From contig NW_027266275.1 of assembly GCF_022045235.1 (NCBI RefSeq), positions 60,016,001 to 60,080,000 of the forward strand: DNA of 64,000 nucleotides, in the 5' to 3' direction. The notes under the pieces were generated by a model. That model saw only the letters and a list, made by a program, of their open reading frames with translations. It did no database searches and was not told where the DNA came from. The position numbers and the translations under genes are program-made. The DNA comes from Haliotis cracherodii. Taxonomy: Eukaryota. Positions 4,390-48,769 of the stretch are shown in pieces (the stretch's first letter is position 1; every line of letters begins with the position of its first letter).

Positions 4390-5357
4390 AGTATTTCACC
4401 GTGGCCCTACTACGCTTCTGTAAATAAAAAATATCTCAAAAATGATTTTATTTTCGTCCAAAAAAAAGATTTTGGATTTTTAAGGTAGACGGATTAACCA
4501 TGTTTTAAAATGTCAGACATAAATAAACGTGGAAAGGAAATACAGTCTGTTTACAGTCTTCCACACCTGAATTCCTATTGCTTAACGGCGATGAGTTAAA
4601 GTCGCTGAAAAAACTGTAACTCAATTTGCGGGCAATTACCACATGTCAAGCAGCTGCATATTAATTTCCTGAAAGCATGAACTAAACTGAATGGGCATTG
4701 ATTTACAGTCGATAAAAGGTGAACAGAAATAACAGTCTATTTACGTCAGGCATATGGCAAATTAATCGTTGATGAACAGAGAGATTGATCAGTCGATAAC
4801 ATGTAGCTGTGAATCCTTATAACACACCAAGAAGATTCTTAACCATAAACAATAAATATTTTCATTCATTTCATTTCAGAACATAATTCCAAAAGATTTC
4901 TTTGCCCTGTTCAAATGAATTTGGAAATAAGACTGAAGGAAAGGGAAATCAACGACATGAGAATCGACTTTCATCGGGAAAAAACAGACTCCATATCTAC
5001 ATATCATATAAACCATGCAGCGCTTATACATATACATCCAGGAATCAGTACAAGTATGCATATAGCGTTGTTGTCAGCGACTCCATCACTCTCACGCCAG
5101 TACGTCACCAAGCGGACATTTGAGGTAATACTGAGTTTTTAATTATGTGCTACGTCAAAAGCGCATCATGAATGAGGATTGGTTTAGCAGTGATTTCTCA
5201 TAATTAGAGAAAGGGATTTGGCGTTTATATTGTACTACTTAGCGTGAAACTAAACAATATTTGTGATCATAAAACAGTGTATAGACAACATGAGAATCCT
5301 TGTTCGATAATGACCCAGACGATGACGGATACCGTATTCAATCGTGTCTTGTATCTC

Positions 5358-5478
5358 TGTAGTATAGGTGATTGGCGTTCTGCCGCAACCCACCCTAGAC
5401 CATTCCCAAACCCTATAAATGCTTCTACGGAGGCCTTTTTTATGCAAATTATGCGATGCGACCCAACGATCGTCATGG
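5358..5478 (+). repeat. Left terminal inverted repeat of the Polinton-like element (~120 bp)
   Basis: Aligns by eye to the reverse complement of 16028-16150 at roughly 80% identity. Confidence 0.9.
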
Positions 5479-5489
5479 TTGTATTAAAG

Positions 5490-6075
5490 AAAGATTGCTG
5501 CAGTGGCTAAGGTATCCAAAGATGTTGCCAAGGATTGGTTAAAGAAACAAGCAATATGGTAAATATACTTACCGCCCCTCGTTTTATACTGAGGAAAAAG
5601 GTTGATATTTTCACAATGAATGAAGTTCATCAGGCTGACCTCTAGTTTTTTCCTCATGATAAGGCAAGACGCAAAACATATAAATACACTTTAACCGTAG
5701 ATGCAGCTAGTCGCTACAAAGAGGCTGAACCATTAACCTCCAAAGATTCAACAGAAGTAGCTAATACACTAAGCCGCATATATAAACACGGACCACTAAA
5801 ATGGCCCAAGTTGTTTCAAGGGGATGCTGGTCGCGAGTTTATGGGATCAGTAACTAAACTATTAACAAAGCACGATGTTGCTATCAGGCGTGGCGAAAAA
5901 GAGGCCAAACGTAGCCAAGCTATTGTTGAAAGATTTAACTGGACATTAGCAGAAAGTTTGTTTGGATATCAGTATGGGATTGGAATGAAATCAGATCGAT
6001 TAAGATCAATGGAATGGGTGACACGAGTATCAGCCCTGAATAATGAAGTTACAAGATTAATTGGGAAGAAACCAC
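5490..6075 (+). pseudogene. Retroviral-like (rve/c-integrase) DDE integrase remnant
   Basis: Translation across stops: AKVSKDVAKDWLKKQAIW*IYLP...NEVHQADL...YKYTLTVDAASRYKEAEPL...QGDAGREF...QAIVERFNWTLAE...LNNEVTRLIGKKP. The D (QADL), D (GDAG) and E (VERFN) triad is present. Truncated at both ends. Confidence 0.9.
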
Positions 6076-6229
6076 CCAGCACAGATGGTACAACTACAAC
6101 CTTGAAACTATATATCCAAACCCACAAGGAGTGTGTTCTTGAGTTTTGTATGAAAAACTATATTCAGTACTAAGTTCGGTATTTTCTATTTTCGCAGAAA
6201 TATTTCCTTTCCTTATTGGTGGTTGATTG

Positions 6230-7125
6230 TATAATAGCCTGCTTAAACTCTTAATCCATGTATAATGATATTTCCCATCTTTTTCGACCAGAAATAAATT
6301 GATTCTGGGAATATTTTCTGGGGCGGAGCTCAACCTGTATACAACAATTCCCTTGGAATGCCCGAAAACATTCACAGCTAAATCATTTTGCTTTTCCACC
6401 TTATTAATTTGTGAGATTACTGTAGGCGCATCTATACCTTCAAAGTTGAGTCCTTTGTTTTTGGGAAAGCTTGAAGGTCTATTTGCAATTTTAGAATCTG
6501 CAGGAAACAAGGAAGATTTTAATGTCCATCTTAAACAGTTATCATCATTATCTTTTACATTAATTATGGCTTTTTCACCTTATAATATGAGGGCAAATCT
6601 ATATAAGATCCACCTTTCAAAGGCATATAATTTGCTATGTCTAAATATAAAGTATCCATTCTATCCATGCCCCAACCAGAATCTCTATTCTTAAGTTCGG
6701 TATATTCAACGCTATCATCTGCATTATTTTTACTTAATGACAATTTGAGTGTCAGATAATTTAAATAGTATAAAATACCAGCTCCTCATTAATTTTCGGG
6801 ATGCGATGGGTTTAACATCATTAACATCCATGATGGAATTAATATCAATTTTCCAACTCTTAGATATCTACCAATGGCATGATCTGTGGGTACAAATCTT
6901 AACTCTGTTGCAAATGTTTGATTATCATTCAGTAATGCAATCAATTCAGCTTTTCTCATTCGAGAATAACCTCTCAGCCCATGGTTTCTTGTTTGAGCTT
7001 TCAGTTCTCTAACAGTCTGAGGTTTGTTGTATTCCAAACTGAGTTAGGTAATCAATTCTGCTTTTCTCATCCGATAATAACCGCATAAACCACATTGTTT
7101 TGCCAAAGCTTTTAGCTCTCTGGCA
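6230..7125 (-). pseudogene. N-terminal part of protein-primed B-family DNA polymerase (pPolB), preceded by two Rho-N-like helical repeats
   Basis: Motifs RDSGW, LDIANYMPLKGGSYIDLP, KAIINVKDNDDNCLRW, NFEGIDAP..QINKVEKQN..VNVFG, INLFL..HYTWIKSLSRLL resemble the Maverick pPolB N-terminal region. Upstream are RELKALAKQCGLCGYYRMRKAELI and RELKAQTRNHGLRGYSRMRKAELIALL. No catalytic polymerase motifs seen. Confidence 0.8.
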
Positions 7126-7459
7126 TAAACCATTGTGATGTAATGGTATACGCAAAATAAAACAAATATCTAAATGTTTTTTTATTCATACTAGTATGTC
7201 TAAACACTGATTCTCCGAAACCTATTCCTCCCATTGGTGCAATCCTATCATAAATAATCTGGTTTTGAATCTTGTCAGTGCCGTGAGCTTTGCAAAAACA
7301 ATAATGACCTTTGACCCCAATCCAACATACAGAACATGTGTAGTTAACATTACCATGTCTAAGTGAGTAAGAATGAATTCCACAGTCTAGGCCGACACAC
7401 CGCTCGTTACAGTTTAGGGGTTTCCCCATAAGCGTAAATCTACACTGGATTAACATCAT
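7112..7459 (-). CDS. Small Cys/His-rich ORF inside the Polinton-like element (possible Zn-binding), function unknown
   Basis: Open 115-aa frame with CNERC, CGIH, CSVC and CFCKAH clusters, lying between the pPolB remnant and the piggyBac insertion. Confidence 0.35.
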   Translation of the reverse strand: MMLIQCRFTLMGKPLNCNERCVGLDCGIHSYSLRHGNVNYTCSVCWIGVKGHYCFCKAHGTDKIQNQIIYDRIAPMGGIGFGESVFRHTSMNKKTFRYLFYFAYTITSQWFMPES

Positions 7460-7468
7460 GGCTATTAA

Positions 7469-9192
7469 CCCTTTTTCCCCGACTGCCCGATTTATCGGGC
7501 AGCATAAACCGTGTCGCAGTACCCGGCTGCCCGAAAAATCGGGCGGCTACTGTCCAAGCCCCCACACGGCTGCCTGATAAATCGGGCGGCGCGAGCGTGT
7601 TTACAAAATCGCTCTTTCTACTTCCTTTCTCGTGTGTAATCTCGTTCTAAATATGGAAACGAGATCTACACGTAATGACACGTCATTCGATTGAATTTCC
7701 CCGTCTTTTTGGCGCGAAAATGGCGGATGTCACCTGTTTTCGCGACAGGTATTTTTCTCGCTTGAATCGTAAATCAAGCGTAATGGCGGCCAACTACGAT
7801 TCGGATAGCGATCAGATGATAAACAACGACTCTATCGGAAATAATAATGTGTTTAAATTGAATAATTTAAGCGAAGGGTAGAGGGAATTTCGGGAATATT
7901 TTGGTGAAGATTTTGACGGTTTCGACGAGGTGTACCCCCCGCCAACTTTCAAGAATGGGAGTGGCAGAGGGACCACAACAGTGGAGACATGAGGGATTTT
8001 GAAGAGGCGACCGGACTCAAGAATATATATATTGACACGGTGAGTGAAGAGTCATGCTATTGATTTTTTCCAACTGTTTTACAATGATTCTGTGTTTGAA
8101 CAGATTATCAGTCCGACGAATGAGAATGCAGCCTACACGTGAACGAGCGATCACAACAACAACAAAGGTGAGTGGCATGATGTATCTGTTTCTTTTTTTT
8201 TAAATTTATTTTTCCGATCGCAATTCGCTCAATTTGAATAAAATTTATTTCTATATTCATGTTTGTTTTCTTGTTTTTTACATCTAAATTTAAATTTTAG
8301 TAACTGTAAAAATTATTTATTTATTAATTGATTTAATAAAGTACTGATTTAATTTATTAAGCAATTGTAAATAGCAGTGTATTGTAAATATGTTATCACA
8401 ACTTTTATATTTGCAGAACTTGAATTTACGATCTTTCTGTCCTTTAACAATCTTTCCCTCTTCAGATCAATCTGTGATATCTTCCCTGTGATGTCATTCT
8501 TATAGTAGCTGTGGTTCAATGTTCAGGTAATGTGATAAATTACTTTTTAAAAACTTAAATACTTAATTTTTGTTTCAAATCCTGAAAAAGAACAAAATAA
8601 ATTAAATATTTGTGTTTTTACCTGTGTTAACGAGTTTACCTGCGTTAACAAGTTTACCTGTTAAAGAGGCTGTAAGTGTATCATAAGTAATATGTGACAT
8701 CAGTATAGAAAACAAAGTCAGTACCAAGAGTTGTAAACTTGTTTATTTGTTTACAGATGTGCATGAAGAGAATTTACCTGTAACACCTGCGATTACCTGT
8801 GCCGTCCAAGATGACAAGACCACTGTGTTATGTTTACCTTGTATATGTGATTTATTTTTGTGATTTTTAATACAATTTGAGCCAAAATTCATTGTCTGTT
8901 TTCATTTTTTCAGTGCTTTCAAGTTTTATTTCACTTGTAAACACCTGTAATTAGGAAATGACAAAGGTTAGAGACAATAACAACAAAGAATATTAAAGTA
9001 TACTTAATCCTCTTTACAATGGCATATGATAAATGTATATTAAAAGCAAGTTTCTGGTAGAAAAAGTGCATCAAAAATGATGGTGTGATTTTCCAATAAT
9101 ACTGCCAGGGAGGCCAGCGTGCAGGCCTTGTCAGTGTCAGGGACTGCAGGGTTTCAAGGGACATAACTCTGGGGCAGCCAGTGATGAAAGAG
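7469..9192 (+). mobile_element. Non-autonomous piggyBac derivative nested in the Polinton-like element
   Basis: TTAA at 7465-7468 and 9193-9196. Imperfect TIRs ccctttttccccgactgccc and (rc) ctctttcatcactggctgcccc. Transposase N-terminal remnant at about 7782-8135: acidic MAANYDSDSD... then IDFFQLFYNDSVFEQIISPTNENA (PGBD-type F-LF-D-I-TN-A motif). Confidence 0.85.
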
Positions 9193-9679
9193 TTAATACA
9201 CCTCACGTATCATTTGTCTAAATGCAAATCAGCCAAGTCTCTGCTTGGGTGGTGGTGCTTTAACTATCATTTTACCTCTGCGAGCATAGCCTATAGTTAA
9301 GCCACTAACAACTGCTGAATGCTACATCCGTAACTGGAGTAGTCATGCTTTTTAACATTACATGAGGGTTTAACTCTAATTGAACCTCGTCCAAATTTTG
9401 AACTGGTGATGTTTTCTCTTCACCAGTCTTAATAAACAATACTGCTGCTATAACAACAACTCCAAGTGCATAGGGAGCCCACGTTTTAATCCATTGTGAA
9501 CTGTGTTCAGTATTTGAATTGTGTAGTAGTTTTGCCTTCTTGGCTAAAGCCCCCCTTTTACCCGCTGCTACTTTTCTGGGTTCTTAGTCACTCTCACAAC
9601 TTCCTCTTTCACTTGTTGTGTTTCCGCATTCACTTCTGTGATTTCCGCTTCCATTATTATAATGCTGGGTACACACGTT

Positions 9680-10125
9680 TAAATTGACAATACCTAGCCA
9701 TTCTTATAGTGGCAGTAAATGGTGCTAAGAACATTCCGTATCTATGGTAAAACTCACAGCTTACTGCACTTAAAGTGTGTTCAACAAATGGGTCTTTCTC
9801 GAGAGATTCTCATAGATAAAGAAGACTTTCTGATGGGATAGGAAGAAACGTACTAGCGACAGCTGTGTATAGTTGTACCAAAGCCAAACCTATTATTTTA
9901 GTCATGGTAGCTCCCAGTCTAGACTTGTAACATGCGTATATTTTTTTCTTATTTCTTCGTTATGTTATCAATTTTTTCAGTGGTATAATTTCCCCTCAAG
10001 TATTGGGATCATTTTCCACCAGCTACCAAAGCCGCAAGTCTTTCTCAATGTTGTTCTGTATATTTTTCCAATACAGGTTCTGACTCATCTTGGAGCAGTT
10101 TTTCGAGAAATTCGTTGCATTCCAT
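9680..10125 (-). pseudogene. Uncharacterised Polinton-associated ORF (degenerate)
   Basis: Read across stops and frameshifts: MECNEFLEKLL...ERLAALVAGGK*SQYL...SRLGATMTK...LEKDPFVEHTLSAVSCEFYHRYGMFLAPFTA. Resembles, from recollection and unverified, an ORF carried by invertebrate Polinton-like elements. Confidence 0.55.
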
Positions 10126-10384
10126 CTTTTTAATATAATATACTAGCTGATACTTAAGTCTAATATATTTAAATATGATATATCTAATACAGCCTGAAAT
10201 AATAAACTGTTGCAAAACGAATGAGGATTTCCAACCATATTATTACATAAATTGTTGCTAGTGTTCAAATGAACTTAAAATTGCTAAGCAGTTGCTAAAA
10301 TTTGCTGAGCAGTTGCTACATTTCCAGTTTTCTGACTTTATCTCGCTTGAGCTTGGTAGAAATAACATCATTTTGGCGTAGACA

Positions 10385-10785
10385 TTTTGCAATAAAACAG
10401 GGCAATCCATCTTGTCTGCTCTCTGAGATCTTTCAGGACAGAGTTGTATTTTTGAATAAGTACCCAAACAATATGTCGACCAAGAATGCTAAATATGAAA
10501 CGTTTCTTTCTTTTTAGTAAGTTGTTTACTCGCACTACACTAGCCTATTTTGAAAAGTATTGATTCTCCTTTGAATTTTTCGTGGCATACTCGTAAAATG
10601 TCTTGTAAATGATCGACGGGATCAACTTTTTGCACCTCGGGATCCATCATTACCCAATCTCTTGATACGTATGTTTTATTAACGTTAATAGTCGATCACA
10701 AACAAATTTGTGATATTGACTTTGTAAAATATCTAGAATAAAAGCTGTTTCTCCGTAGCCCATTTGCCCGCAGATGATAACACAG
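10385..10785 (-). pseudogene. A32/FtsK-like genome-packaging ATPase remnant
   Basis: Decayed Walker A ICGQMGYGETAFILDIL (about 10735-10780; GxxGxGKT with K>E), then NKTY..DWVMMDPEV, LAFLGRH, VWVLIQKYNSVLKDLREQTRWIALFYCK (GRH, TQ-like and arginine-finger motifs of this family). Confidence 0.75.
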
Positions 10786-11920
10786 ACATAATCACGTACA
10801 ATTATAAGTTTAATTTCCAAGCCCTTTCAGCCTTCTCCATTATCTGTATAGTTACACCCTAACTACCATTCTCTATTCTCCGCAAACTACCGTGTAGTTG
10901 GTCATCATCTGTGGTTTGCATGTCGAGCCATAGCGCATACTTCGAGGTAAGGAATTCAGCCAGCGATGCATTCCCAAGAGCCAGATCTTTTGCAACTTCT
11001 CAGCTTCGTCTTATAGAAGGGAGTTTTTTAATCTCATCCTACTGATGATATGTTCGCTTGCCTTGACTATATGGTTGATTAGACACGCCCTAGATAGTAA
11101 GTTTTACTTTTGTAATCTTTGGATGATAGAACGCCTAGGTATATCTGAAAAATGGTTCAGAAGAGTCCTCGAACAACACTAAAATACCCTCCAATGATCT
11201 AGTGAGCACGTTTAGATTGATATCCCACATGGTATCACCTTTGTTCCTGGAAATCTTTTGGTGTCGAAGAACGCAATCGTACAAAATGGCTTTACGGCTA
11301 TACTGGTTACGAACTTGTCTGGCTAATACAGGGTCTGTTATCATATCAATGGAATAGCTAGCCCCATCAGTGGTTTTGATTACTCTGTGGTAGTCATTAA
11401 AAGTCAGTTCGTATTCTAACCTATCGGCTAGGAATGCTTGATAGAAGGGCATGTGACAATCGAGTAACACAAAGTCAAGTCGAATATAGAATATTATTAT
11501 TAGCAGAATGTACACGCAGTCTCGTTGAAATATTATTATCAATACCTTGATACTGTAAGTTTTCCCATTCTTTTGCCTTTGTCCAGAGATCCATTTAACA
11601 GAAGTGTACATCGCTGTCATCAATACTCAAGACCTCATTACCGCAAATTTTAGTCGTAATTTTCTTTACAATTGCACGACCTATGTTCTGAACAAACTCC
11701 CTGTTAATGCCAGTTGAAGTCAAATTATTGTAAATAACAGTCGGTCTGTTTCTGGAACTAACACATCATGAGCGCTGAGATTGGGAATGTAAACCAGAAG
11801 TGTTTGATTTTGATCAATGTGGTGCTTGGGTTATGAGTTATAGGTACAGACTGCTTCGACTCCTAATTGATCCTGAAGTCCATGTTGTGGATTTAACTTG
11901 TGCCTGTATTGCGAAGACAT
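10785..11920 (-). pseudogene. Putative major capsid protein (double jelly-roll) remnant
   Basis: ATG at 11920. Fragments MSSQYRHKLNP, THNPS, IDQNQTLLVYIPNL, QNIGRAIVKK, LDFVLLDCHMPFYQ..RLEYELTFNDY, SLEGILVLFE, KYALWLDMQT..LHGSLRRIEN. About 1.1 kb, directly upstream of the ATPase, with many stops and frameshifts. The capsid label rests on size, position and recalled similarity. Confidence 0.65.
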
Positions 11921-11962
11921 TCTTTATATTGAAATGATGTTTGCTTATTTTTAATACAAAAA

Positions 11963-13020
11963 ATGGATGATATTAATCTAGATAAGCTAATTGACACTAC
12001 TGCAGTTGAAGGGGGACTGATGAAACCAGCTTTATGAATCTTACTTACGAACTTTTGCAATCAGCTGTTAATGATTATTATGATGTCTTAAAAGAACACA
12101 AAAAGTATGTGACTCCTATAGGCCGTGACTATTCCTAGTTAACAATAGATAGTAAAGGAATATTGCGACTGCATGGCTCTCCAGATATTGATCTTATAAA
12201 TTCTTGTACTAGGAAACCCCTAGCGTTATCTACAGTAGCTGTGCATCGTGGCAGCATCAACATTATTCATAACATGAATAAGGTCTTGTAGACTATGACA
12301 ATTCACAAGTAAAACTTTCTGCAAAGACTACTAAGGTTCTTCAGACTGTGCGAACTGAACTTTAGCAACACTCAAAGGAGGCCTTGGATGGCCTCGGAGA
12401 AATCTTGGCAACCTATGAAGAGTCTACATTACAGGCACCATCCTTAGAGTACAGTATTAGAGGGTTATGAGGTCTTGACAAACAGTGTGGGGTCACTCAT
12501 CAATAATATAGCCAAGGCACATGGACTCGACAAGCATATAGCTTATGAGAAAACAAAAACTTGGCAGATGATGAATTCAGCAGATGCAGAGTTGCTGAAA
12601 GATTGAATAACTTAGAAGAAAGATCAGCCCGCTTGGAAGCAGCTTCCAATAATAGAGAAGTTCTTCATTCACAAATCAGTCGAATTTGAGAAACTATCAA
12701 TCAAGATTTCAATGATGATACCACACTGGCCGAAAAAAATAAAATATTGTTCAGAGAACAGGGGATAACCATTACCAGTATTTTAACTACATTGGGATTT
12801 ATCAACTTTGGCTCTTGGATTAACTGGAGGTGGTGGTATAGGCGGTGGCACACCTCCTAGTGATAAGGATGGTGTAAAAGAGTGGATAAAAAGCATTTAA
12901 AGGCATTAGGAGAAGCACTAGGCAAGCTCGCTGGGATAGCCGCGTCTTCACTTCCTGGTAGCGGGTATAGTATCCTGGCTCTTGAATGTATTAGTCAAGA
13001 CTGCCATTTGGGCAGTAATT
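11963..13020 (+). pseudogene. Coiled-coil protein with hydrophobic/amphipathic C-terminus (Polinton-associated, candidate membrane-active)
   Basis: Starts MDDINLDKL. The C-terminal part reads DDTTLAE..KILFREQGITITSILTTLGFI..LTGGGGIGGGTPPSDKDGVKEWIK..LKALGEALGKLAGIAASSLPG..IVSWLLNVL. Frameshifted. Confidence 0.6.
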
Positions 13021-13059
13021 GTAGCAATTGTCCGACTATTTATCCAAATCATTAGTAAA

Positions 13060-14185
13060 CCCGTCATGACTCTTCCTACTATAAGCCCTGTATTTTCATT
13101 GATATGTTGTTGATTTTGAGTCACAACATGTGGCTGTTGCACTTCTGTTAATTACAGTAGATGACCTTGACTTGACAATTCCTGTTTTGCCTGTGTTTGG
13201 TTGCGCTACTGATACAGTGTTAAGATCTGAATTGAAACCTACAACTACAATCATATTATTATAACCTACCACTTGGCCAACGTTAAGTTGCATGTTACTC
13301 GGTGTAAACATAGTCCACTTTAGATTCGGCAACTGTAGTACATCTTGGTATCAACGGGTGATGAAACAGCATCCTCTACATTTTTGCGCATTGAAAGCTG
13401 TCCCCGCACAAATGATGTTTGAGCGTGTTTGTGACTGAGCTCGAATGAGAGCCCAAACATAAGATCTGATTGAGTCACTAATAATTTCAGCGCCGGGGTG
13501 ACTAAAACCCTCTGATTTATTTTTTAAAATGTTCCAAGCATTATCAGCATCTTGTGCTTGGTCAACCTCTTGGACGGTGAAAGCAACACCACCCTGAAAG
13601 TTCATATGATCGTCTCTCCACTCGTTACTCGAGAGAGCAAAGCTCGGAAGAAGCCGACCCCTTATCAATAAACCATCGCTGACTTCTTTAACAGAGTGTG
13701 CGACACCGTATGGAATACCGAGACAATAGTTAACTCCACACAGACGCCAATCTTTACTCGTAGAAAAACCTAATTCCCCACAATTACGTTCATATGCTCG
13801 CCGATGGTACGGATTATTTGATACATTCTATGCATGATCCTGAATTGATGGTGCACTTATTTCTGTAAGGATGCGCCTAAGCTGATAGTACACATGAAAG
13901 AAGAAAACAGTATTAGTTTGTCGCGATGGTCACTAACAGATACTCCACAGCCTGTTGTGGCACACCATATAGCAAAGTTTAGCTGGTTTTGACAGAACTG
14001 CATCGGATTGGATAACCAGTCATGTACTGTTTTAACTTTTGTTGCTGTGGACCTGTAATTTCTAAAGATATCAGGGAATTGAGTTTTAAACTGAGCACCA
14101 GAGACATCGACTAAAATTGTCGATTACTGCAATACTACTCTCGGTTTTACCAGCTCCAATATTGAAGTAATAATATAGTATCTTT
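13060..14185 (-). pseudogene. Uncharacterised Polinton-associated ORF (degenerate)
   Basis: Fragments QFPDIFRNY, WLSNPMQFCQNQLNFAIWCATTGCGVS, FFFHVYYQLRRIL, NNPYHRRAYERNC, ISDSIRSYVWALIRAQSQTRSNI, NMQLNVGQVVGYNN lie in one orientation over about 1.1 kb. Confidence 0.6.
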
Positions 14186-14196
14186 GTATATTTAAT

Positions 14197-14815
14197 ATGT
14201 ATGCTACACTCCCGGGAATAACAAATGGTCAGTCTATTCAACTGCTTCACACTATTGATAACTTGGCAGGGCAACTTGAAGTTGCTCTCTGCAATATAAC
14301 GTATTACCCACAGTGGACCAATATAAGTACTGTGAGAGATAACGATAAGTTATTACTAGACAACGACTGTCATACTATATCTGATGGGTATTACAGTGTA
14401 TGATCATCACTCAATGATGAAATTTTAAAACCTTTTTGAGCTAGTTTCACACTAAATGAGTCGAATGGGGTGCTGATTTTTTAAGCAGTGGAACACATTA
14501 TATAAACTTGACAGGGACTTAGCAAAAACACTTGGACACAACAGTGGCACCCAACACAACAGTGCATGGAGTTAAATTTCCCGATATAGTTCCCTATCAA
14601 AAGTTGTGCATCCATCTTGAACAGATTAGTACAACAAATAATATTGAATACAAAAGTCCTTCAGCTTTACTAAGAGCTAACAGAATCGTTGTCATCATTG
14701 CAGTATAAGAAGTTAAGGTGGGGTATTATTACAGAGCTAATGATTTCTGTATTAGATGTAAAACATCAACCTGTACATATGGGATATTTGAGCGTGTCAC
14801 TCCATATTATAAATA
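14197..14815 (+). pseudogene. Putative minor capsid/penton (single jelly-roll) remnant
   Basis: MYATLPG...LEVALCNITYYPQWTNI...ISDGYYS, later LCIHLEQISTTNN..ALL..QYKKL..ELMISVLD. The EVAL-I-YP-W-NI and GYY pattern and ~200-codon size resemble Polinton mCP. Confidence 0.55.
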
Positions 14816-15097
14816 ATGGTTAGTGGACTCTATGAAGCATTATACAACCTTGTTCGCGCCAATAACCATGGACTCGAAGCAAAAATCGAATGGCTACTGA
14901 ATATCGTCATTGCCCCACCATATGTGACGAGGGACAAGGCACATCATTTAACTAAAATAATGAATAGTGGGGTCATACTCGGGGCTTATATTCCCTCAAA
15001 ACGAAAGAGTGTGTTAGTCGCTCCCCTGCAAGATGGCCCAGGCTATATGTTATTGAGTCCAGCATTAAAAGATGTTAACTTAACTTTGGTTACTTAA
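14816..15097 (+). CDS. Small uncharacterised ORF inside the Polinton-like element
   Basis: Intact 93-aa ATG-started ORF directly after the penton-like gene, preceded by the AT-rich tataaataATG context seen at other element genes. Confidence 0.35.
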   Translation: MVSGLYEALYNLVRANNHGLEAKIEWLLNIVIAPPYVTRDKAHHLTKIMNSGVILGAYIPSKRKSVLVAPLQDGPGYMLLSPALKDVNLTLVT

Positions 15098-15439
15098 TTC
15101 AATGATATATTAAACAACTTTAATGCTATACCCACAAGCGCTACACTTCTTGTGGAATTCTTGTTTGGGGATGCGCCAGAACATGGCCTCGTGATATTAC
15201 CGGGGCTATCAATTAAATGGTTTAAAAGACATGAACGTCAACGTTGTAGTAGTATTTTCGGAGCGGGATACAATCTTATTACTTCAACCCTTAATGGTAT
15301 TGAAGTTAATATTATGAGTCTTTCGCTTTTTATGATATTTATACCCTATATTATAATCTAAAAAGGATGATGTATACCCCTTGACATTCTCGACCGACCA
15401 GTTAAACCCTCTTGTATAATATAATAATAAATTTACTAT

Positions 15440-15960
15440 GATTATGGGTTTATATCCAGCGCTCGATGAAGCATCTGAAAAAAGGGATACTGTTGATGAA
15501 TTTCGATTACATCAAATAAGTGAAATAAAACATCACATAGATAAGGGGCATGATTCCAGATTATTAGACTTGGATTATATAAAATGTATAGCAGAGCCTT
15601 GAATGCTCTTAGTGGTGTTGAAACTGCACTTAGCTAGTAGCAGCTAGGATGTAGCCGGTGTTGGTTTATTATCAACTATAATCGCCACGCCTATCATATA
15701 TGGCATGGAAGTGCAGTCTCTGGACTGGCAGGAGTAGCTCTTAAATTTATTTGCAAAAACAAAGCATTAAAACATGATAGTATTCGTGTCTTGGCTGAAG
15801 CAAAGTTAAATAGCATTGAGGATCATATCTCAACAACACTGGCTGATTGCAAGATATCCGAGAAGGAGTTTCGTTTAGTGTTATTAGTAAACAGGATATT
15901 CGGTCAAAATCTCATAAGACCAGTGGCATAAGTGAAGACGAGAAAAAAGTTCACAGAACA
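15440..15960 (+). pseudogene. Polinton-associated ORF with two predicted transmembrane helices (degenerate)
   Basis: YPALDE...FRLHQISEIK...ALNALSGVETAL...VAGVGLLSTIIATPIIYGMEV...GLAGVALKFIC...KHDSIRVLAEAKLNSIEDHISTTLADCKISEKEFRLVL, read across frameshifts. Confidence 0.6.
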
Positions 15961-16027
15961 AAGAAAACCAAAACCAAAAAACTGGTTGGAGATTAAGAAT
16001 AAATTGTTTCCTCGATATGCATCGTAA

Positions 16028-16150
16028 TCAATGACGATCATTTGATCGCATTGCATAATTTGCATAAACAATTACGTCTGTAGAAGCATTGATAGGGTTC
16101 GGGCCTGGTCTTGGGCGGGTTGCGGTAGAACCCTCATCACCTATACTACA
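16028..16150 (-). repeat. Right terminal inverted repeat of the Polinton-like element
   Basis: Reverse complement matches 5358-5478; ends ...cctatactaca. Confidence 0.9.
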
Positions 16151-17341
16151 ATCTTCAATCATTTCAACTGGTTCGCCCCAATGCAAATGCAACACGCCTT
16201 CGGTAGTTTGACATTTGTTACTTGCGATTAAACACTTACGACGAACATAAATATCCATATAACACCACCGAGCCTGCATTGAGCAAGGCGATTGGTGATC
16301 ACATCATGCCAACATTTCACAACTATCGTTTCCGGAAGGCATTTATTAAACCCGAGAGTGTTCATGCGTTTACACCAGCGCTACATTGCCTGTTGTAAAT
16401 ACGGTAATCGCTAGCGTTGAATTTATTGCATTTCACTTCTATGCCCGGAAGCAGAACTCCACAACAAATCATTTGGACAGAAATGACATTTGGGCAACCT
16501 TGTCTCAATCACACTTGTATCTTTTTCATATTTCTTGATAAAAAGCAACACACTACGGGTACATTGCAGCATATATCTGAAACGAAGAGTAAATCATGCT
16601 AAAAAACTTGTTTCATTAAAGTATTGCTTGAGAAAAAACTGTTAATTCTTACATGATGACATGTTTCGTTTCAGGGAGTCCTGTTATCTGATTTCATAGC
16701 TATTTTAACTGAATGGCGGTGATATAAAGCACACCTGGTTTATCTCCCTGGGTAGGCATGTCGACAGTGCAAAAACTTAAACAGATTCGTGTGTGGTTTT
16801 CGTGACTATGGATGATACCATATGGCCTGAAATTAGTTTAAGATGTACATAAAAATGCCCCACTTTCATGTTGAATATGAATGTCGAGATAGCTTCGAAA
16901 CGTATGATGTTCTTAAAACCTTATCACCAGCCGCATAATATGATATAGCAGTTCCTCGGAATAAACTCTTAGTGCAGTACTGATATGTTCTTTGTGTTTT
17001 CTTATCAAAGTAAATCCATTAGCGAAGGACACGATACGATCGGAAAGTACAAAAACGGTGTAACACTTCAAACCGTCAACATATAACAGGAAGTTGTCAA
17101 GATTATCGACAGTTGGTTTTATGACGTTTGCACTCATGTTTGCAGGCATAAATGATGAACTCCATCTGTGTAGTTACAGAAATAGACCCAGTGTTGTGTC
17201 CGAGTATCTTCACGTTGCAAAAAAAATGCAAGTTTAATCCAGATGTTTCGGTTCTCTTTGAATATGTTCTATAATTGGATTTTCAAACATGGAGTAATGA
17301 TAGTATGATTTTCTTGTTTCTAAGTGATCATCCGCTGCATT

Positions 17342-22422: not shown

Positions 22423-25415
22423 CCTATTTCTGGAGCCACATATAGTTGTAGTTATACTTGTATACTGTACACTCACATATCCTCGGTTCATATGAGATAT
22501 GATCCAGAGGCTATTTCATCTGTCAGCTGCAAATAGATGGGACATTTTGAAACACATTTCTGTTATCTAAATGTCACATGATTCCGATGCACCTAACGAT
22601 TTGAGGTTGAAAAGAGCTACGGCAAGACATGTTTGTTCATAAATAATAATAATATAACTGTTATTACGCAAATGACTAGTTTATAATAAACGTATTATTG
22701 TTAAGTTTCAAGCCTAATATTAATTGATCATGTATCAGTATTTGATTGATGAAATCGTGTATTTGTAATCACCATAAAATATTCTCTTGTTTAGATTCAC
22801 GTTTAGTTCCAATAAAAGCGCCGAAAACATTTCCATAATCATAAGAAATCTCCACTAGTCTATTGTACGAGTGTATTATACGAATACGTATTATACTATA
22901 TTATAAGCACGTTTATATGAATCACTACCAAATAATGATGATACCAGGTATTCTGCCCCACCGATGACACCCGTTGATCCCGCCTTACGTTGATACCGAC
23001 ACAGATCTAGCACTATTATAATTGAGACCTCATAGGGATAGACTGTCATTAATGAGTAGCTCGCGATAAGGGTCATTCCCAGCACAAACCGACATACATT
23101 GGGTTTTTTCGAGGTCTCCATATTTACAATGATTGAACCCTTTATACCCTGAAGCCGTTTGTCTCAGACCATTGTGAAAATAACATCCATATGATACTCA
23201 AATACTCGGAGCCAACGCTAAGCATCAATGTCTGGACCTGTCAGTATTCAGTCTGTTATTATGGTATAAAGTGCACTCATGTCTTTCACATTCCAGTCAA
23301 AGGAAGCAGAATGGTCAATGCAAAGTCGGCGGCGTTAGTCTTCTGCTGCAATTCCAAATGCCAGTGAAATAAGACCTTGTGGACTCTAGTAGCTAATTAT
23401 CGTTTTTGAAAAATGGGTCACATAAAGGTGCGGATACCAGTTGGCCTCATGGAAATCGCTGTGTAATCATGTAACGTAAAGTTATCACTCGGTTAATCGT
23501 ACATCCTGCGAGTGTCGACTTCGAGAATGACAAGATGTGTTATCCAGTTTAAGTTGAACTTGTTAAGACTGAACAGCATAATGGGATTGCGATGCCAAAA
23601 GGTTTGTAGCCTATAGTGATTCATGAATGGGCCTTCACAACGAAAACTGTAAATGCCACATATAAAATATAACTGTAAAACACTTGCAAAAAAAGAATAT
23701 TTTCAAATAGCGAAATTCTCTCGATCTGGATTTCAAGAAGGATTATAAAACATATTGTGCATGTGTATGTGTGGAACGTTTATGTTTGTTTATCTCGTTT
23801 TGTTGTGGTTTACATAAACAAAGGCACATTCAAATTATCAGTATATTTGCATAATTGAATCGGCATCCGCGGATCCTCCACAACTCTTAAGGGATCCCAA
23901 AACGAATATCCGTATTTCCCATGACTGCTACTTTCCGGTCTATGCTCTTTCCACTTTGTCCACACCATTTTTGAGCCCTGGAACAATGTCTACAGGGAGA
24001 CGACGATTCAGACACTCATGAAACATGAATAGATATACGGCAATGTATATGATAAACGAGAAATGATTTTTATTTCATTTGGAAAATGTAAGATGTAATT
24101 CTCGTCTAGTCCATTTTTGTTGAATACAGCAATGTTTGAAACAGAACATATCTATCATTGGTTCCACGCTTTTTATAATGGGTTTGAAGCTTAAGTTTGA
24201 GAACAGACACGTACAAAGCAAGCATACATTAGGGCGAAGAGGACAATTTAACCCACAAATAATCCAGAAATGAATGTTTATCGGATTGTCCTGGTAAAAC
24301 GTAGAGGCTGATGATGACACTTTACATTAGACCTACGTTGATAGTCGCCAAGATAGGCCTTATTCACTTCGTTTCGGCAAAACCTACTTTCCCATTTCTT
24401 CAACCTGCTCTGGTGTTTCTGTATACACTAGCTGCATGCAGTTTCCTGTGCCTTGTATACTTTATCAGCTCGAGATACCGCGCGTGTAACCTTAGATGAT
24501 ACACAGACTTTTCTTATCCAGTCGCTGAGTTCCCAGGAACGTAACTCGAGGGTTAAAATGCGTTGAAATAATGAGCTTACTCTGACACTCTGACACTTCA
24601 AGAATGCAACCTAACACAAGAAAATTTAGCATAAACGTGAACAGAGATTCCATTTGCTTCTGACAAAGTTTATACGTAGATTGATATGTATATAGTAGAG
24701 GCAACAGTTCTTATGAGTACGAGGATGGTGAGAGAACCTTGGTATTGATGCTTGATCAGAGCCCATTGGTAATTTAAACAAGGAGTTATTTCAATTCACC
24801 AAAGGGAATAATACTTCTTTGTAGAGATCATGACGTTGTTCCATTATACGATACCGACAGACCAACTCCATTGTATTATGCGGAAGGTCGACCCCCTGCC
24901 CGCGTCATACTAGAAGACGTTAAAAGATGGTACTTGATGTTACCCTGGCTGCCTCTCGCTTTTTACCATTCACCGAGACAGAATAAACCGGCTGAGTGGG
25001 GAATTATCCATATTAAACTGAGGCGTGCGGCGTGCTATTTCAGTAGGCTAGGAATATATAACTGTACAAGTACAACAGTCACAAATACGTGCATTGACCG
25101 AGACGTGATACCAAAGTTCCCATCACTACATACTGGCAGTCCATTCAAAACACAACCATTCATCAATATATGGGATGCATCAATATGGTCACGTTACATC
25201 GAATTTCATTTATTCTATTTCCTTACTCTTCATACTGTTACAATTATATATTTACATGTACACAAGGATATTGATCAAGATTAAGTTCCGTTATTTCACC
25301 TCAACCATTTTTTCTCAGATAATTCCATGAAGTTTATATATATATGCTTAGCCAGAACCTATGCTTGACACACAAACGTTTACTGGCACCCCAGTGTTAT
25401 TGAATTATCACTCAC

Positions 25416-26108
25416 CTTTTTTTTCGCAGCGGCCAACTGTAATCGGCGTTTGTTCCCCTCGTCGCTTTTGAAGTTCTTTACCCAGATGTTGTAGCCGATT
25501 TTGGAGTATGAAAATATCAGAATCACAAGGGGTCCAAAATATTGTAATACCATCAATGCCACACTGTATGTATATTTCTTTGAATGATCTTCCCAAACCT
25601 CAAAACACTGCCCACTTGTATTTGAATAGTAAACGAGTTTTGAATTCAAGAATATAGGTAGCGGTATCGCCAACGATACAGTCCAAATTGCCGTTATCAC
25701 AAAGACTGTTTTTCTCGGTGTGATTCTTTTAAGGAAAGGGTGCACTATCACAATATAACGATCCAGGCTCATGGCAACAAGCGTGTAAGAACTGAGCACC
25801 ACAGTCACTCCCTGTATATATTGAAGCACCGGGCACATTACAGCAGGAAATGGCCAGTAGTTTTTCAAATTAACAGCAGCAGTGAAAGGTATGCAAAACA
25901 CCGCTAAGAGTAAATCACTGACAGCCAAATTAACAATGAAATAGTTAGGAACTGTGTGCATCCGCTTGTAAGCAAACACTAAGTAGCAAACAACACCGTT
26001 CCCACCAATTGCTGTGATAGTAATAATCGAGTACATTATGATGAGAATGATCTCCATATACTCCGAGATTTTCCAAGGAAACTGATCTTGTAGGTCTGTA
26101 TCGTTCAT
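25416..26108 (-). CDS. Rhodopsin-like neuropeptide GPCR, luqin/RYamide receptor-like, first coding exon (N-terminus to ICL3)
   Basis: GGNGVV (TM1), NYFIVNLAVSD (TM2), YWPF..MC (ECL1), SYTLVAMSLDRY (TM3), W in TM4, C.E.W (ECL2), LQYFGPL (TM5). Ends AAAKKK at a phase-0 donor AAG|GTGAGT (intron begins 25415). N-glycosylation sequon NDT at the start. TM6-TM7 exons not located. Confidence 0.93.
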
Positions 26109-26170
26109 TCTTTATTACTCCTTAGCGGTTCAATGAATAATGGGTCCCAAGAGCCGAGAATAATGTCCAT
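26105..26170 (-). promoter_or_regulatory. Upstream ORF (MDIILGSWDPLFIEPLRSNKE*) overlapping the GPCR start as ATGA
   Basis: ATG at 26170, 21 codons, TGA at 26107-26105 overlapping the main ATG at 26108-26106. Confidence 0.5.
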
Positions 26171-38843: not shown

Positions 38844-40808
38844 GGTAGATTATTTTAAGGAATTACTTAATCCAGTGTCAATAGGGGATGAGAATTTCTC
38901 AGCTAAAGTCAGTGAGTTTCTTCAACATCATAATGATAGCTTATGCCCAGACTGTCAAAATCAAGATGCTATTTTATCGTGTGATTTTATCGAACAAGAT
39001 GTTGTAAACGCTCTTCACCATTTAACCAGAATTTTACAAATCAGTTGAAAATGTATTAACTCCATATCTTGTCATTTTGTTTAATGCAGTGTTGACCAGT
39101 GGACATTACCCAAAATTATGGTCAACGGGAATAATAATGCCACTGCATAAAAAAGGTAGCAAAAGTGATCCTAATAACTTTCGTGGTATATCACTTCTCA
39201 ATATAATGGGTAAAATGTTTTCTTATGTTCTGAATAAAAGACTACAATGTCTCTTAGACTACCAAGGCATAATTGGTGAATATCAAGGGGGGTTTAAGAA
39301 AGATCATTCAACTATTGATAACATTTTCATTTTGCAAGCTATTATACAAAAGTATATCACCCGCAAAAAAGGAAAAGTATATTGCGCTTTTATTGATTTT
39401 CGAAAAGCATTTGATATGGTTGATAGGAGTAAGTTAATGTATATTTTATTGCAAAATGGTATTCATGGCAAGTTTTTATGTATTATCCAGAGTATGTATA
39501 ATCATGTTAAAGCAACTGTAACATACGATTATGGCAAGAAAATTACTGAGTATTTTGATAGTTCATGTGGGGTAAGACAAGGTTGTACTCTTAGTCCAGT
39601 ACTGTTTTCTTTGTTTATCAACGAATTAGTTATATGTTTGGAAAGTAAATTCCAGGATGGTGTTTTTATCTCAGAGGAAATGTTAAATATAATTGCCCTG
39701 TTGTTTGCCGACGATTTAATACTTGTTGCAGACAGTGTATTAAAATTACAAAAGCGTCTTGATGAATTATATTTATACTCTGATAAATGAGGTATGGATA
39801 TTAATACTGAAAAGAGTAAAATTATTGTGTTTAAAATGGGAGGACCCTTGTCAAAAAATGAGAAATTGTATTATAACGGTGAACGTATGAATACGGTTAA
39901 CGCCTATAAATATTTGGGACTTGTTTTCACTCCCAAATTAATTTGGACTAAGGCCTGTAAAACTCTATGTGAGCAAGCAAGCAAAGCACTTTGGTCAGTT
40001 AAATCGTTAATAAGACGTTGTGACATTTCGGTTACGGAAGCATTCTTTATATTTGATAAAAAAATTGTTCCGATATTAATGTATGGTGCTGAGATTTGGT
40101 GATACCAAAAATGGAATACGATTGAAATTGTTCACCGCAAATTTTGTAAATTTTTACTTCACACGGGCTACAGGACTGCAAATGCAGTAGCCTATGATGA
40201 ATGTGGTAGGTATCCACTTCATACTATTTATTATGTAAAATGCATTAAATATTGGTTTAAGAATTTGCAAATGAGTCCAAACAGATACCCATACCAGTGT
40301 TATAAAATGTTATTATCCATTGCTGATAGAAAACGTCCTAACTGGGCATCGCATATCAGACTTTTGCTAAGTCATTATGGTTTTGGGGATGTATGGGCTG
40401 CACAAGGCGTTGGCAATGCAGAATTATTTGTACATATGTTCAGAGAAAGAGTTAAAGATTGTTCGTTTCAAGATTGGCATGCATCTCTAGGCAGCAAGAC
40501 CCTCTCATTCTATAAACTGCATAAATCTAATATCGTTTGTGAAAAATATTTATCAAATATTAAGCATTGTGAATATAGAAGGCTAATAACCAAATTTAGA
40601 TGTGGACAGAATACTCTTGGTATTCAACTTATACGTAGGGGTGTTGCTAATATTGAGGAGGATGCCGTCTTATAAAACACTGTCATGTAATTGAGGATGA
40701 ACTTCATGTTATATAAAACTGTCCTCTTTATGCAAGTCGGCGGGAAATGTATATCCCAAAGACAGTTAATCATAATTATTTTTGTTTAGAAAGACTCTAC
40801 GTGTTCTC

Positions 40809-47836: not shown

Positions 47837-48075
47837 TGTTTTGATGGTCTGATACTGCAAATATGAACATCTTTCGAATGTGATGTCAACGACGTTGTCA
47901 TGATAAGCATAATGTCTGCAAACATGAATCTGTTGCTGTCCCCAAACATCTAGGCACATAAATCACGAAATCTGTTTCTTAAACAAACTGGCGGCGGACG
48001 GGTAGCCTAGTGGTTAAAGCGTTCGCTCGTCACGCCGAAGACCCGGGTTCGAATCCCGACATGGGTACATTGTAT
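47837..48075 (+). repeat. Inverted duplicate of about 62608-62846 (unique flank plus SINE-A 5' half)
   Basis: Near-identical reverse complement over ~240 bp. Confidence 0.92.
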
Positions 48076-48769
48076 GTCATGCTGTTGATGAATGTTTTGA
48101 AAGTAACCAAACTGCTGATCATTTGTTACCAAAGGAATAAAGCGTAGGGTTGCGTATAGAGACTTTAACCATTAAAGATAAAGTTTTATTACTTTTATGG
48201 ACGATATCTGAGTATATGTGTCATACTTGTGTTTATTCAAACGTTCACACAGAGCATATCTTTCCCGTTGACGATTGAGAAATGCAGCTTCAAAGGTACA
48301 GTGTATATCAAGTTAACACCCGAGCAACCGGATCTGAACCAAACAACGCAGTTCATAACGGCAATCTTATTGTAGAGTCGCTCTTTGTGATCCACTGCCA
48401 ACTCAGTCGCTCAATCACTTGTGTTAGCATGTCTCTGTTGTTTGTCGCTTCAGTGTTTGCTGACGACTGGCTGCATGAGTTAGGTTTAACGCTGATTTGA
48501 CCAATGTCTCTGTTATAGCTCGGTGTGTCAGCTTGATGCGGGAACAAATTCCGACACGATGCAAGTCATAAATTACGGCTTAGGTACTGATATACCCAGA
48601 ATTATAATCAGTGCGAATGTGGGATTAGAGTGGGTGCGAGACAGCTGCATTGCTGTTCTTGACTTCACGAGTCCCATTTATGTTAGATATCCCAAAGATG
48701 ACGACTAAAAGACTGCAAGTTATTGTTACCAGGAGATCTGGTGATTCCACAACTGTGGTGATATTATCG

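Follow-up and report, generated by a model that had tools for sequence, protein, structure and literature searches.

Both replication and integration of Polinton/Maverick elements depend on their ends, which are the replication origin and the substrate of the integrase; in the literature that we searched neither reaction has been worked out. According to the accessible portions of the papers cited here, vertebrate Mavericks end in (AGT)2, (AG)3 or (AC)3A, which has been attributed to jump-back priming (PMC8097293). Polinton terminal inverted repeats (TIRs) measure ~100–1500 bp and the target-site duplications (TSDs) 5–8 bp (bioRxiv 2023.08.22.554363), the TSD being given elsewhere as characteristically 6 bp (PMC10045372; PMC3014272) or as 5–6 bp (PMC8547959), the latter also for Polinton-like viruses (PMC12220804). 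The accessible portions of PMC11131425, PMC8502044 and bioRxiv 2025.02.07.637071 hold no information on Polinton end bases. The short end motifs were described from vertebrate elements and are typical, not defining. Here we describe an element in a 64,000-nucleotide stretch of Haliotis cracherodii DNA (contig NW_027266275.1, positions 60,016,001 to 60,080,000; hereafter the window) whose ends read TGT...ACA, and which an earlier note had proposed as a possible distinct subgroup, perhaps with retrovirus-like end processing. We think it likely that this is instead an old insertion of a AGTAGTATA-ended Polinton, made with a 5-bp stagger, and that the inserting DNA already carried T at base 1 of both ends.

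From the open reading frames (ORFs) of relatives mapped onto the window, the element is a Polinton/Maverick (Table 1). It shares with the (AGT)2-ended elements, as described in the available part of Barreat and Katzourakis 2021 (PMC8097293), the TIRs, an rve integrase, an A32 ATPase and, putatively, a protein-primed DNA polymerase B (pPolB) and a capsid gene, and bases 2–6 of its end are likewise GTAGT. It differs from them in having T as base 1 at both ends, in being broken and rearranged, and in its 5-bp TSD, whereas 6 bp dominates there. A Pfam search of six frames, with X placed at stops, matched only rve and Rho_N; the A32 ATPase is recognized by homology to relatives' ORFs. The integrase remnant, which is characteristic of Polinton/Maverick, matches residues 20–219 of a 317-amino-acid relative at 71–75%, in two frames with one stop, and both protein ends are missing. 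The pPolB remnant, of which the N-terminal part alone is left, matches at 57–60% proteins that score above the cut-off for DNA_pol_B_2, and the Rho_N domain is located in relatives at the start of the polymerase region. The L025 ORF that identifies the capsid remnant matched Capsid_N at E 2.3e-04, below the cut-off. Among relatives with a known end, the pPolB remnant is closest to the AGT-ended L002 (60%, as against 40–46% for AC-ended ones) and the capsid remnant to the AGT-ended L043 (53%, as against 30–33%). No Pfam match to a protease was found in the six frames or in 15 relatives' ORFs, and no more sensitive search was made.

Table 1. Features of the abalone Polinton/Maverick and its target site (window positions).
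Feature	Position	Strand	Remarks
Left TSD copy	5353..5357	+	ATCTC
Left TIR	5358..5476	+	starts TGTAGTATAGG; inner edge adjoins truncated integrase
rve integrase remnant	5491..6074	+	PF00665 E 4.5e-05, below curated cut-off
N-terminal part of pPolB	6100..6716	-	catalytic region absent
Two Rho_N-like repeats	6924..7121	-	PF07498 E 5.7e-13, 2 stretches
Nested insertion	7465..9196	.	TTAA on both sides, weakly similar ends
Remnant of conserved ORF, function unknown	9666..10221	-	comes after ATPase in relatives
A32-type packaging ATPase remnant	10386..10781	-	match to L041 ORF (Pox_A32 E 1.1e-07)
Probable major capsid protein remnant	10790..11917	-	48% over 425 columns to L025 ORF
Remnant of conserved ORF, function unknown	12058..12803	+	match to relatives' ORF
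Remnant of conserved ORF, function unknown	13174..14090	-	relative's ORF without Pfam match
Remnant of ORF nearest one terminus in relatives	15450..15892	+	match to relatives' ORF
Right TIR	16031..16150	-	ends CCTATACTACA
Right TSD copy	16151..16155	+	ATCTT, 4/5 match to left

The local alignment of the two ends begins exactly at 5358/16150, so that the TIR identity reaches out to TGT (5358–5360) and ACA (16148–16150), as the earlier note had claimed, and by this alignment these positions are most likely the element ends. The arms are 84% identical (119 ungapped columns, of which 100 match and 19 do not, and 1 gap); they agree through the first 15 bases, and position 16 is the first mismatch. 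Their length of 119–120 bp lies within the range reported for Polintons. Compared with (AGT)2, TGTAGT differs in base 1, at both ends, and the A-starting repeat motif is thereby absent. The sequence TGTAGTATAG stands in the same register as AGTAGTATAG, the end of the intact relative L043, with base 1 alone differing; end positions 2–10 equal those of L043 and nearly equal those of L002. The note had used AGT at 5361 as the canonical comparison, but AGTAGT aligns in register with TGTAGT itself, and only its reading of the ends as TGT...ACA with a 5-bp TSD stands. Within the window the exact end motif is present only at the two element ends, and no second element copy was found there. A search of the element against the window detected no terminal direct repeats of the kind carried by a long terminal repeat (LTR) retrotransposon; the ends are inverted repeats. 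Folding gave no consistent TIR hairpin (z = 0.35 for the left TIR, -2.33 for the right), and a pattern built from the TIR had 0 matches in viral contigs. The octamer ATGCAAAT, which we take to be a POU-site consensus, is present in both TIRs (5442–5449 and 16058–16065) and absent from 7 relative ends, except for one pair deep inside one of them.

Symmetric end placements were tried with TSD lengths of 2–10. In the TGT register, the flanks match at 4/5 positions for 5 bp, in agreement with the note, and at 2/6 for 6 bp; the former is the sole good fit where the outer ends are complementary. Moving the ends outward by 1–2 bases gave 3/3, 7/10 and 6/8, but the ends are then non-complementary and these values are shifts of the same match. 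No symmetric placement produced a 6-bp TSD. The AGT register (5361/16147) matches at 0/6, confirming that this placement lacks a TSD, and the contrary case that the note had raised, ends at AGTATAGG with a 6-bp TSD, does not fit the insertion. The likelihood ratio against chance is ~21 for 5 bp at TGT, 0.02 for 6 bp at TGT and 0.0001 for 6 bp at AGT. A flank match of at least 4/5 arises by chance with a probability of 0.018–0.020 (0.026–0.034 with other lengths allowed), and a true 5-bp TSD at the 16% divergence of the ends would show one mismatch with a probability of 0.40 and none with 0.42. These values suggest that a 5-bp TSD is probably present at 5358/16150, favored over chance by ~21 to 1 on a single copy, which is fair but short of decisive. 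A TSD of 5 bp with one mismatch is inside the reported range of 5–8 bp.

Relatives were taken as the loci found with an alignment of 30 integrases: 16 on genome contigs, 3 on viral contigs and the best 80 of 554 in metagenomes. A search for distant inverted repeats covered the loci of at least 6 kb among these 99, and three contigs were also extended. In the integrase search 1113 of 1267 candidates had E<=0.001, and all 120 among the matches listed contained PF00665. Single-protein scans of the viral contigs found no integrase relatives, and the alignment scan found there the 3 distant loci, at 31–39%. No further complete elements were seen in 4 metagenome-assembled genomes (MAGs) searched with the terminal repeats of three relatives, and 380 genomes of one family yielded the known locus only. 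Both ends could be read in four relatives. L043 has AGT ends, starting AGTAGTATAG, with repeats that are 99% identical and a TSD matching at 5/5 (2/6 at 6 bp). G001:C67 starts ACACAC and has a TSD of 5/5 or 8/8 within an ATT microsatellite (2/6 at 6 bp), G001:C9 starts AGTAGT and has a TSD of 6/6, and L095 starts ACACAC at ends whose TSD is unreadable. In three further loci a single end or a terminal hairpin was seen (AGT in two of them, AC in the third). G001:C50 has one end only. A TG start occurs in none of the 7 relatives with a recognizable end.

G001:C67 and G001:C9 come from one assembly. The integrases of G001:C67 and G001:C9 are 88.6% identical over 254 residues and are sisters in a quick integrase tree (support 94), and the two elements differ in both end motif and TSD length. 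Because sister elements differ in both, end motif and TSD length are labile and do not mark subgroups. The 5-bp TSD is also not the anomaly that the note had made of it, nor is it tied to TG...CA, since published TSDs include 5–6 and 5–8 bp and both AGT- and AC-ended relatives show TSDs other than 6 bp. The intact relatives (L043, G001:C67, G001:C9 and L002), which we infer to be host DNA in marine metagenomes and MAGs, resemble the window element in gene set, in the AGTAGTATA-type end of L043 and L002, and in the 5-bp TSD of L043. They differ from it in that their ends start AGT or ACACAC and in that their polymerase is closer to the end than the integrase, which sits further inside the element, the window block being inverted.

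Several further observations were made on these relatives. Palindromic terminal repeats, in which the end motif recurs in inverted form further in, are found at G001:C67:3805-3963, G001:C9:291-464, L068:6136-6316 and L095:2084-2288; the window TIRs have no such palindrome. At G001:C9:169-291 the AGT-ended element directly adjoins a 114-bp AC-type terminal hairpin, as if it had inserted into the end of another Polinton. A 1209-amino-acid ORF at the polymerase position of L025 (9967-13596) matches the AAA_30/AAA_19 helicase families and not DNA_pol_B_2, and L022, L023, L037, L038 and L051 match this ORF over long stretches; a helicase has possibly replaced the polymerase within the integrase group. 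L001-L013 are Polinton integrases and whole elements on contigs assigned to bacterial MAGs, into which animal host DNA was most likely mis-binned.

For vertebrate ends we used the supplementary table of PMC8097293 (3,512 rows), through word searches and parts 27 and 36 of its 43 parts. In the text so covered there are 713 instances of AGTAGT and 712 of ACTACT, with TGTAGT seen 3 times as a 5' motif and ACTACA 4 times as a 3' motif; in none of its rows (8 matches) do TGTAGT and ACTACA occur together. Judged by eye, 35 crocodile rows with repeats in those parts include 16 perfect 6-bp TSDs, 8 with 5/6 and 1 perfect 5-bp TSD, and 5-bp TSDs thus seem rarer in this small sample than in the integrase group studied here. 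No TGT-ended Polinton family is reported in the literature searched, which did not include Kapitonov and Jurka 2006, Pritham 2007, Repbase or Dfam.

Our proposal is that a Polinton/Maverick of the AGTAGTATA-ended kind inserted long ago at 5358/16150, that both ends would have been linked by its rve integrase to target DNA cleaved 5 bases apart on the two strands, as in close relatives, and that one TSD base presumably mutated after insertion. Both ends of the inserting DNA would already have begun with T, differing from AGTAGT by that one base, and the integrase would tolerate several 3' end dinucleotides, namely CT, GT and here CA. Because the integrases of relatives join ends finishing in CT or GT, a CA end needs no special retrovirus-like processing. 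Deletions, inversion of the integrase and polymerase and a nested insertion may later have killed the copy. A single base underlies the likeness of TG...CA to LTR and Ginger elements. The TSD length being ordinary for relatives, the symmetric T at base 1 is the remaining oddity and, in this copy, a small new variant of the Polinton end.

Several points weigh against this proposal. The 4/5 TSD match has a chance level of 2–3%, and the evidence from the window comes from one element copy only. Relatives with known ends are only 57–62% identical to the window integrase core, and the five nearest integrases (71–74% for the best) are known without their termini. A TSD is readable in only 3 relatives, in one of them within a microsatellite (5 or 8). 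The differences listed for the sequencing runs described below include none at the termini, so they are silent on the end base and on the empty site. The vertebrate table, as far as it was available, would miss a TGT family because it was seeded with known end motifs (PMC8097293).

If the T was indeed present on the inserting DNA, then the question is how such an end would be maintained. Fourth-to-first jump-back should restore A at base 1, and a stable TGTAGT therefore needs another route. TGTAGT lacks the repeat of base 4 at base 1 that is found in AGTAGT, but its bases 1 and 3 are both T. In the available text on the tectivirus Bam35, whose 5' end also has T at positions 1 and 3, this arrangement permits third-to-first jump-back with dTMP (PMC5175343); Bam35 is a bacteriophage, and the analogy concerns only the upkeep of TGTAGT, which might be primed with dTMP in the same way. 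If a polymerase were to start on AGTAGT ends opposite template base 3, both ends would acquire T at base 1 in a single step, which could explain the symmetry of the T. One could envision, tentatively and with more doubt than confidence, that a large host family genuinely ends in TGTAGT, as a fourth Polinton end type kept by third-to-first dTMP jump-back, with 5- and 6-base staggers used independently of motif. A swapped-in AC-type polymerase was also considered as the source of the T and is unsupported, the polymerase remnant having its better match in an AGT-ended relative. Should a natural family with T at base 1 exist, it would allow the assumed jump-back priming to be tested readily, and pipelines that require AG/AGT ends and perfect 6-bp TSDs, as described in bioRxiv 2023.08.22.554363 and PMC8097293, would overlook such families and place their ends wrongly. 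Should the T instead be a peculiarity of the window copy, the element is an ordinary fossil.

One alternative is that AGTAGT is the family end and that the T and A of the window copy arose by later decay or in a one-off event at insertion. The copy is old, with ends 16% apart, and 7 rows of the available vertebrate data show TGTAGT or ACTACA at a single end of fossil elements (PMC8097293). However, the same rare change would be needed at both ends, for which the computed probability of two independent A-to-T changes is 7e-4 to 8e-5, and none of the 8 matches there is a double row. Double decay is unlikely, and we regard this explanation as a whole as rather unlikely.

A different interpretation, that of the earlier note, is that the element represents a distinct Polinton subgroup whose integrase trims after CA in a retrovirus-like manner and so yields TG...CA ends and 5-bp TSDs together. 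TG...CA is indeed found at both ends, the integrase is of the rve family, and in the quick tree it falls in a 6-row group (SH-aLRT 96) with no known ends, so that a local subgroup may still exist. However, a 5-bp TSD accompanies AGT ends in L043, integrases that are 89% identical differ in motif and TSD, and the count of TG starts among relatives is 0/7. Furthermore, because the window end shares its length and register with AGTAGT, no trimmed bases need be invoked. We consider this subgroup improbable.

It is hardly credible that a Ginger-like cut-and-paste element (TGTNR, 4–5-bp TSD) supplied the ends and carries a captured and rearranged Polinton interior: TGTAG fits TGTNR, the 119-bp repeat is within the 50–180 bp of Ginger2 and TDD-4/5 produce 5-bp TSDs (PMC2836005, available in part), the interior is rearranged and the integrase is truncated at the inner edge of the left TIR, but bases 2–10 of the end equal a Polinton end, Polinton genes reach both TIRs, the six frames have only rve and Rho_N matches and rve proteins of this kind are encoded by elements that carry pPolB, ATPase and capsid. 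In the accessible text of PMC2836005, Ginger1/Ginger2 and LTR elements share with the window element the TG...CA ends (TGTNR), TSDs of 4–5 bp and a related integrase fold. The single transposase of Ginger has an H2C2 zinc finger, and Ginger, unlike the window element, lacks polymerase, ATPase and capsid; LTR elements have direct repeats.

Both junctions are bridged by contigs of runs X1, X7, X9 and X14, from four organisms, with at least 31 bases on each side, and because the junctions are common to the four, the insertion predates their split. Contigs of the three other organisms differ from the window at ~2–4 bases per 100. The four runs were compared with 4420–17250; of 2958 differing places, 855 joints and 5215 loose ends, 40, 15 and 24, respectively, were listed, none of them at the termini. 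The element exceeds its flanks in summed depth by a factor of hundreds, which suggests a large element family, although the depth figure is not a copy number.

The integrase-polymerase block (5491–7450) is inverted with respect to intact relatives, and the truncated integrase stops 15 bases short of the left TIR's inner edge. With an integrase lacking both ends, a polymerase lacking its catalytic region, an inverted block and a nested insertion, the copy is therefore dead. The nested insertion, presumably piggyBac-like, varies in depth among the runs, and because the depth in X9 far exceeds that in the others it is a separate repeat family.

Three further features lie elsewhere in the window. 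At 25380–26111 (-) there is an open frame of 243 amino acids, which looks like an exon of a neuropeptide G-protein-coupled receptor. Reverse-transcriptase-like frames at 39026–40675 (+), with a match to an L012 ORF, presumably belong to a non-LTR retrotransposon. Copies of a short interspersed repeat, tRNA-like and with a tail of CACT repeats, occur at 47837–48076, 62607–62846 and 59596–59724; the repeat may be similar to an abalone SINE.

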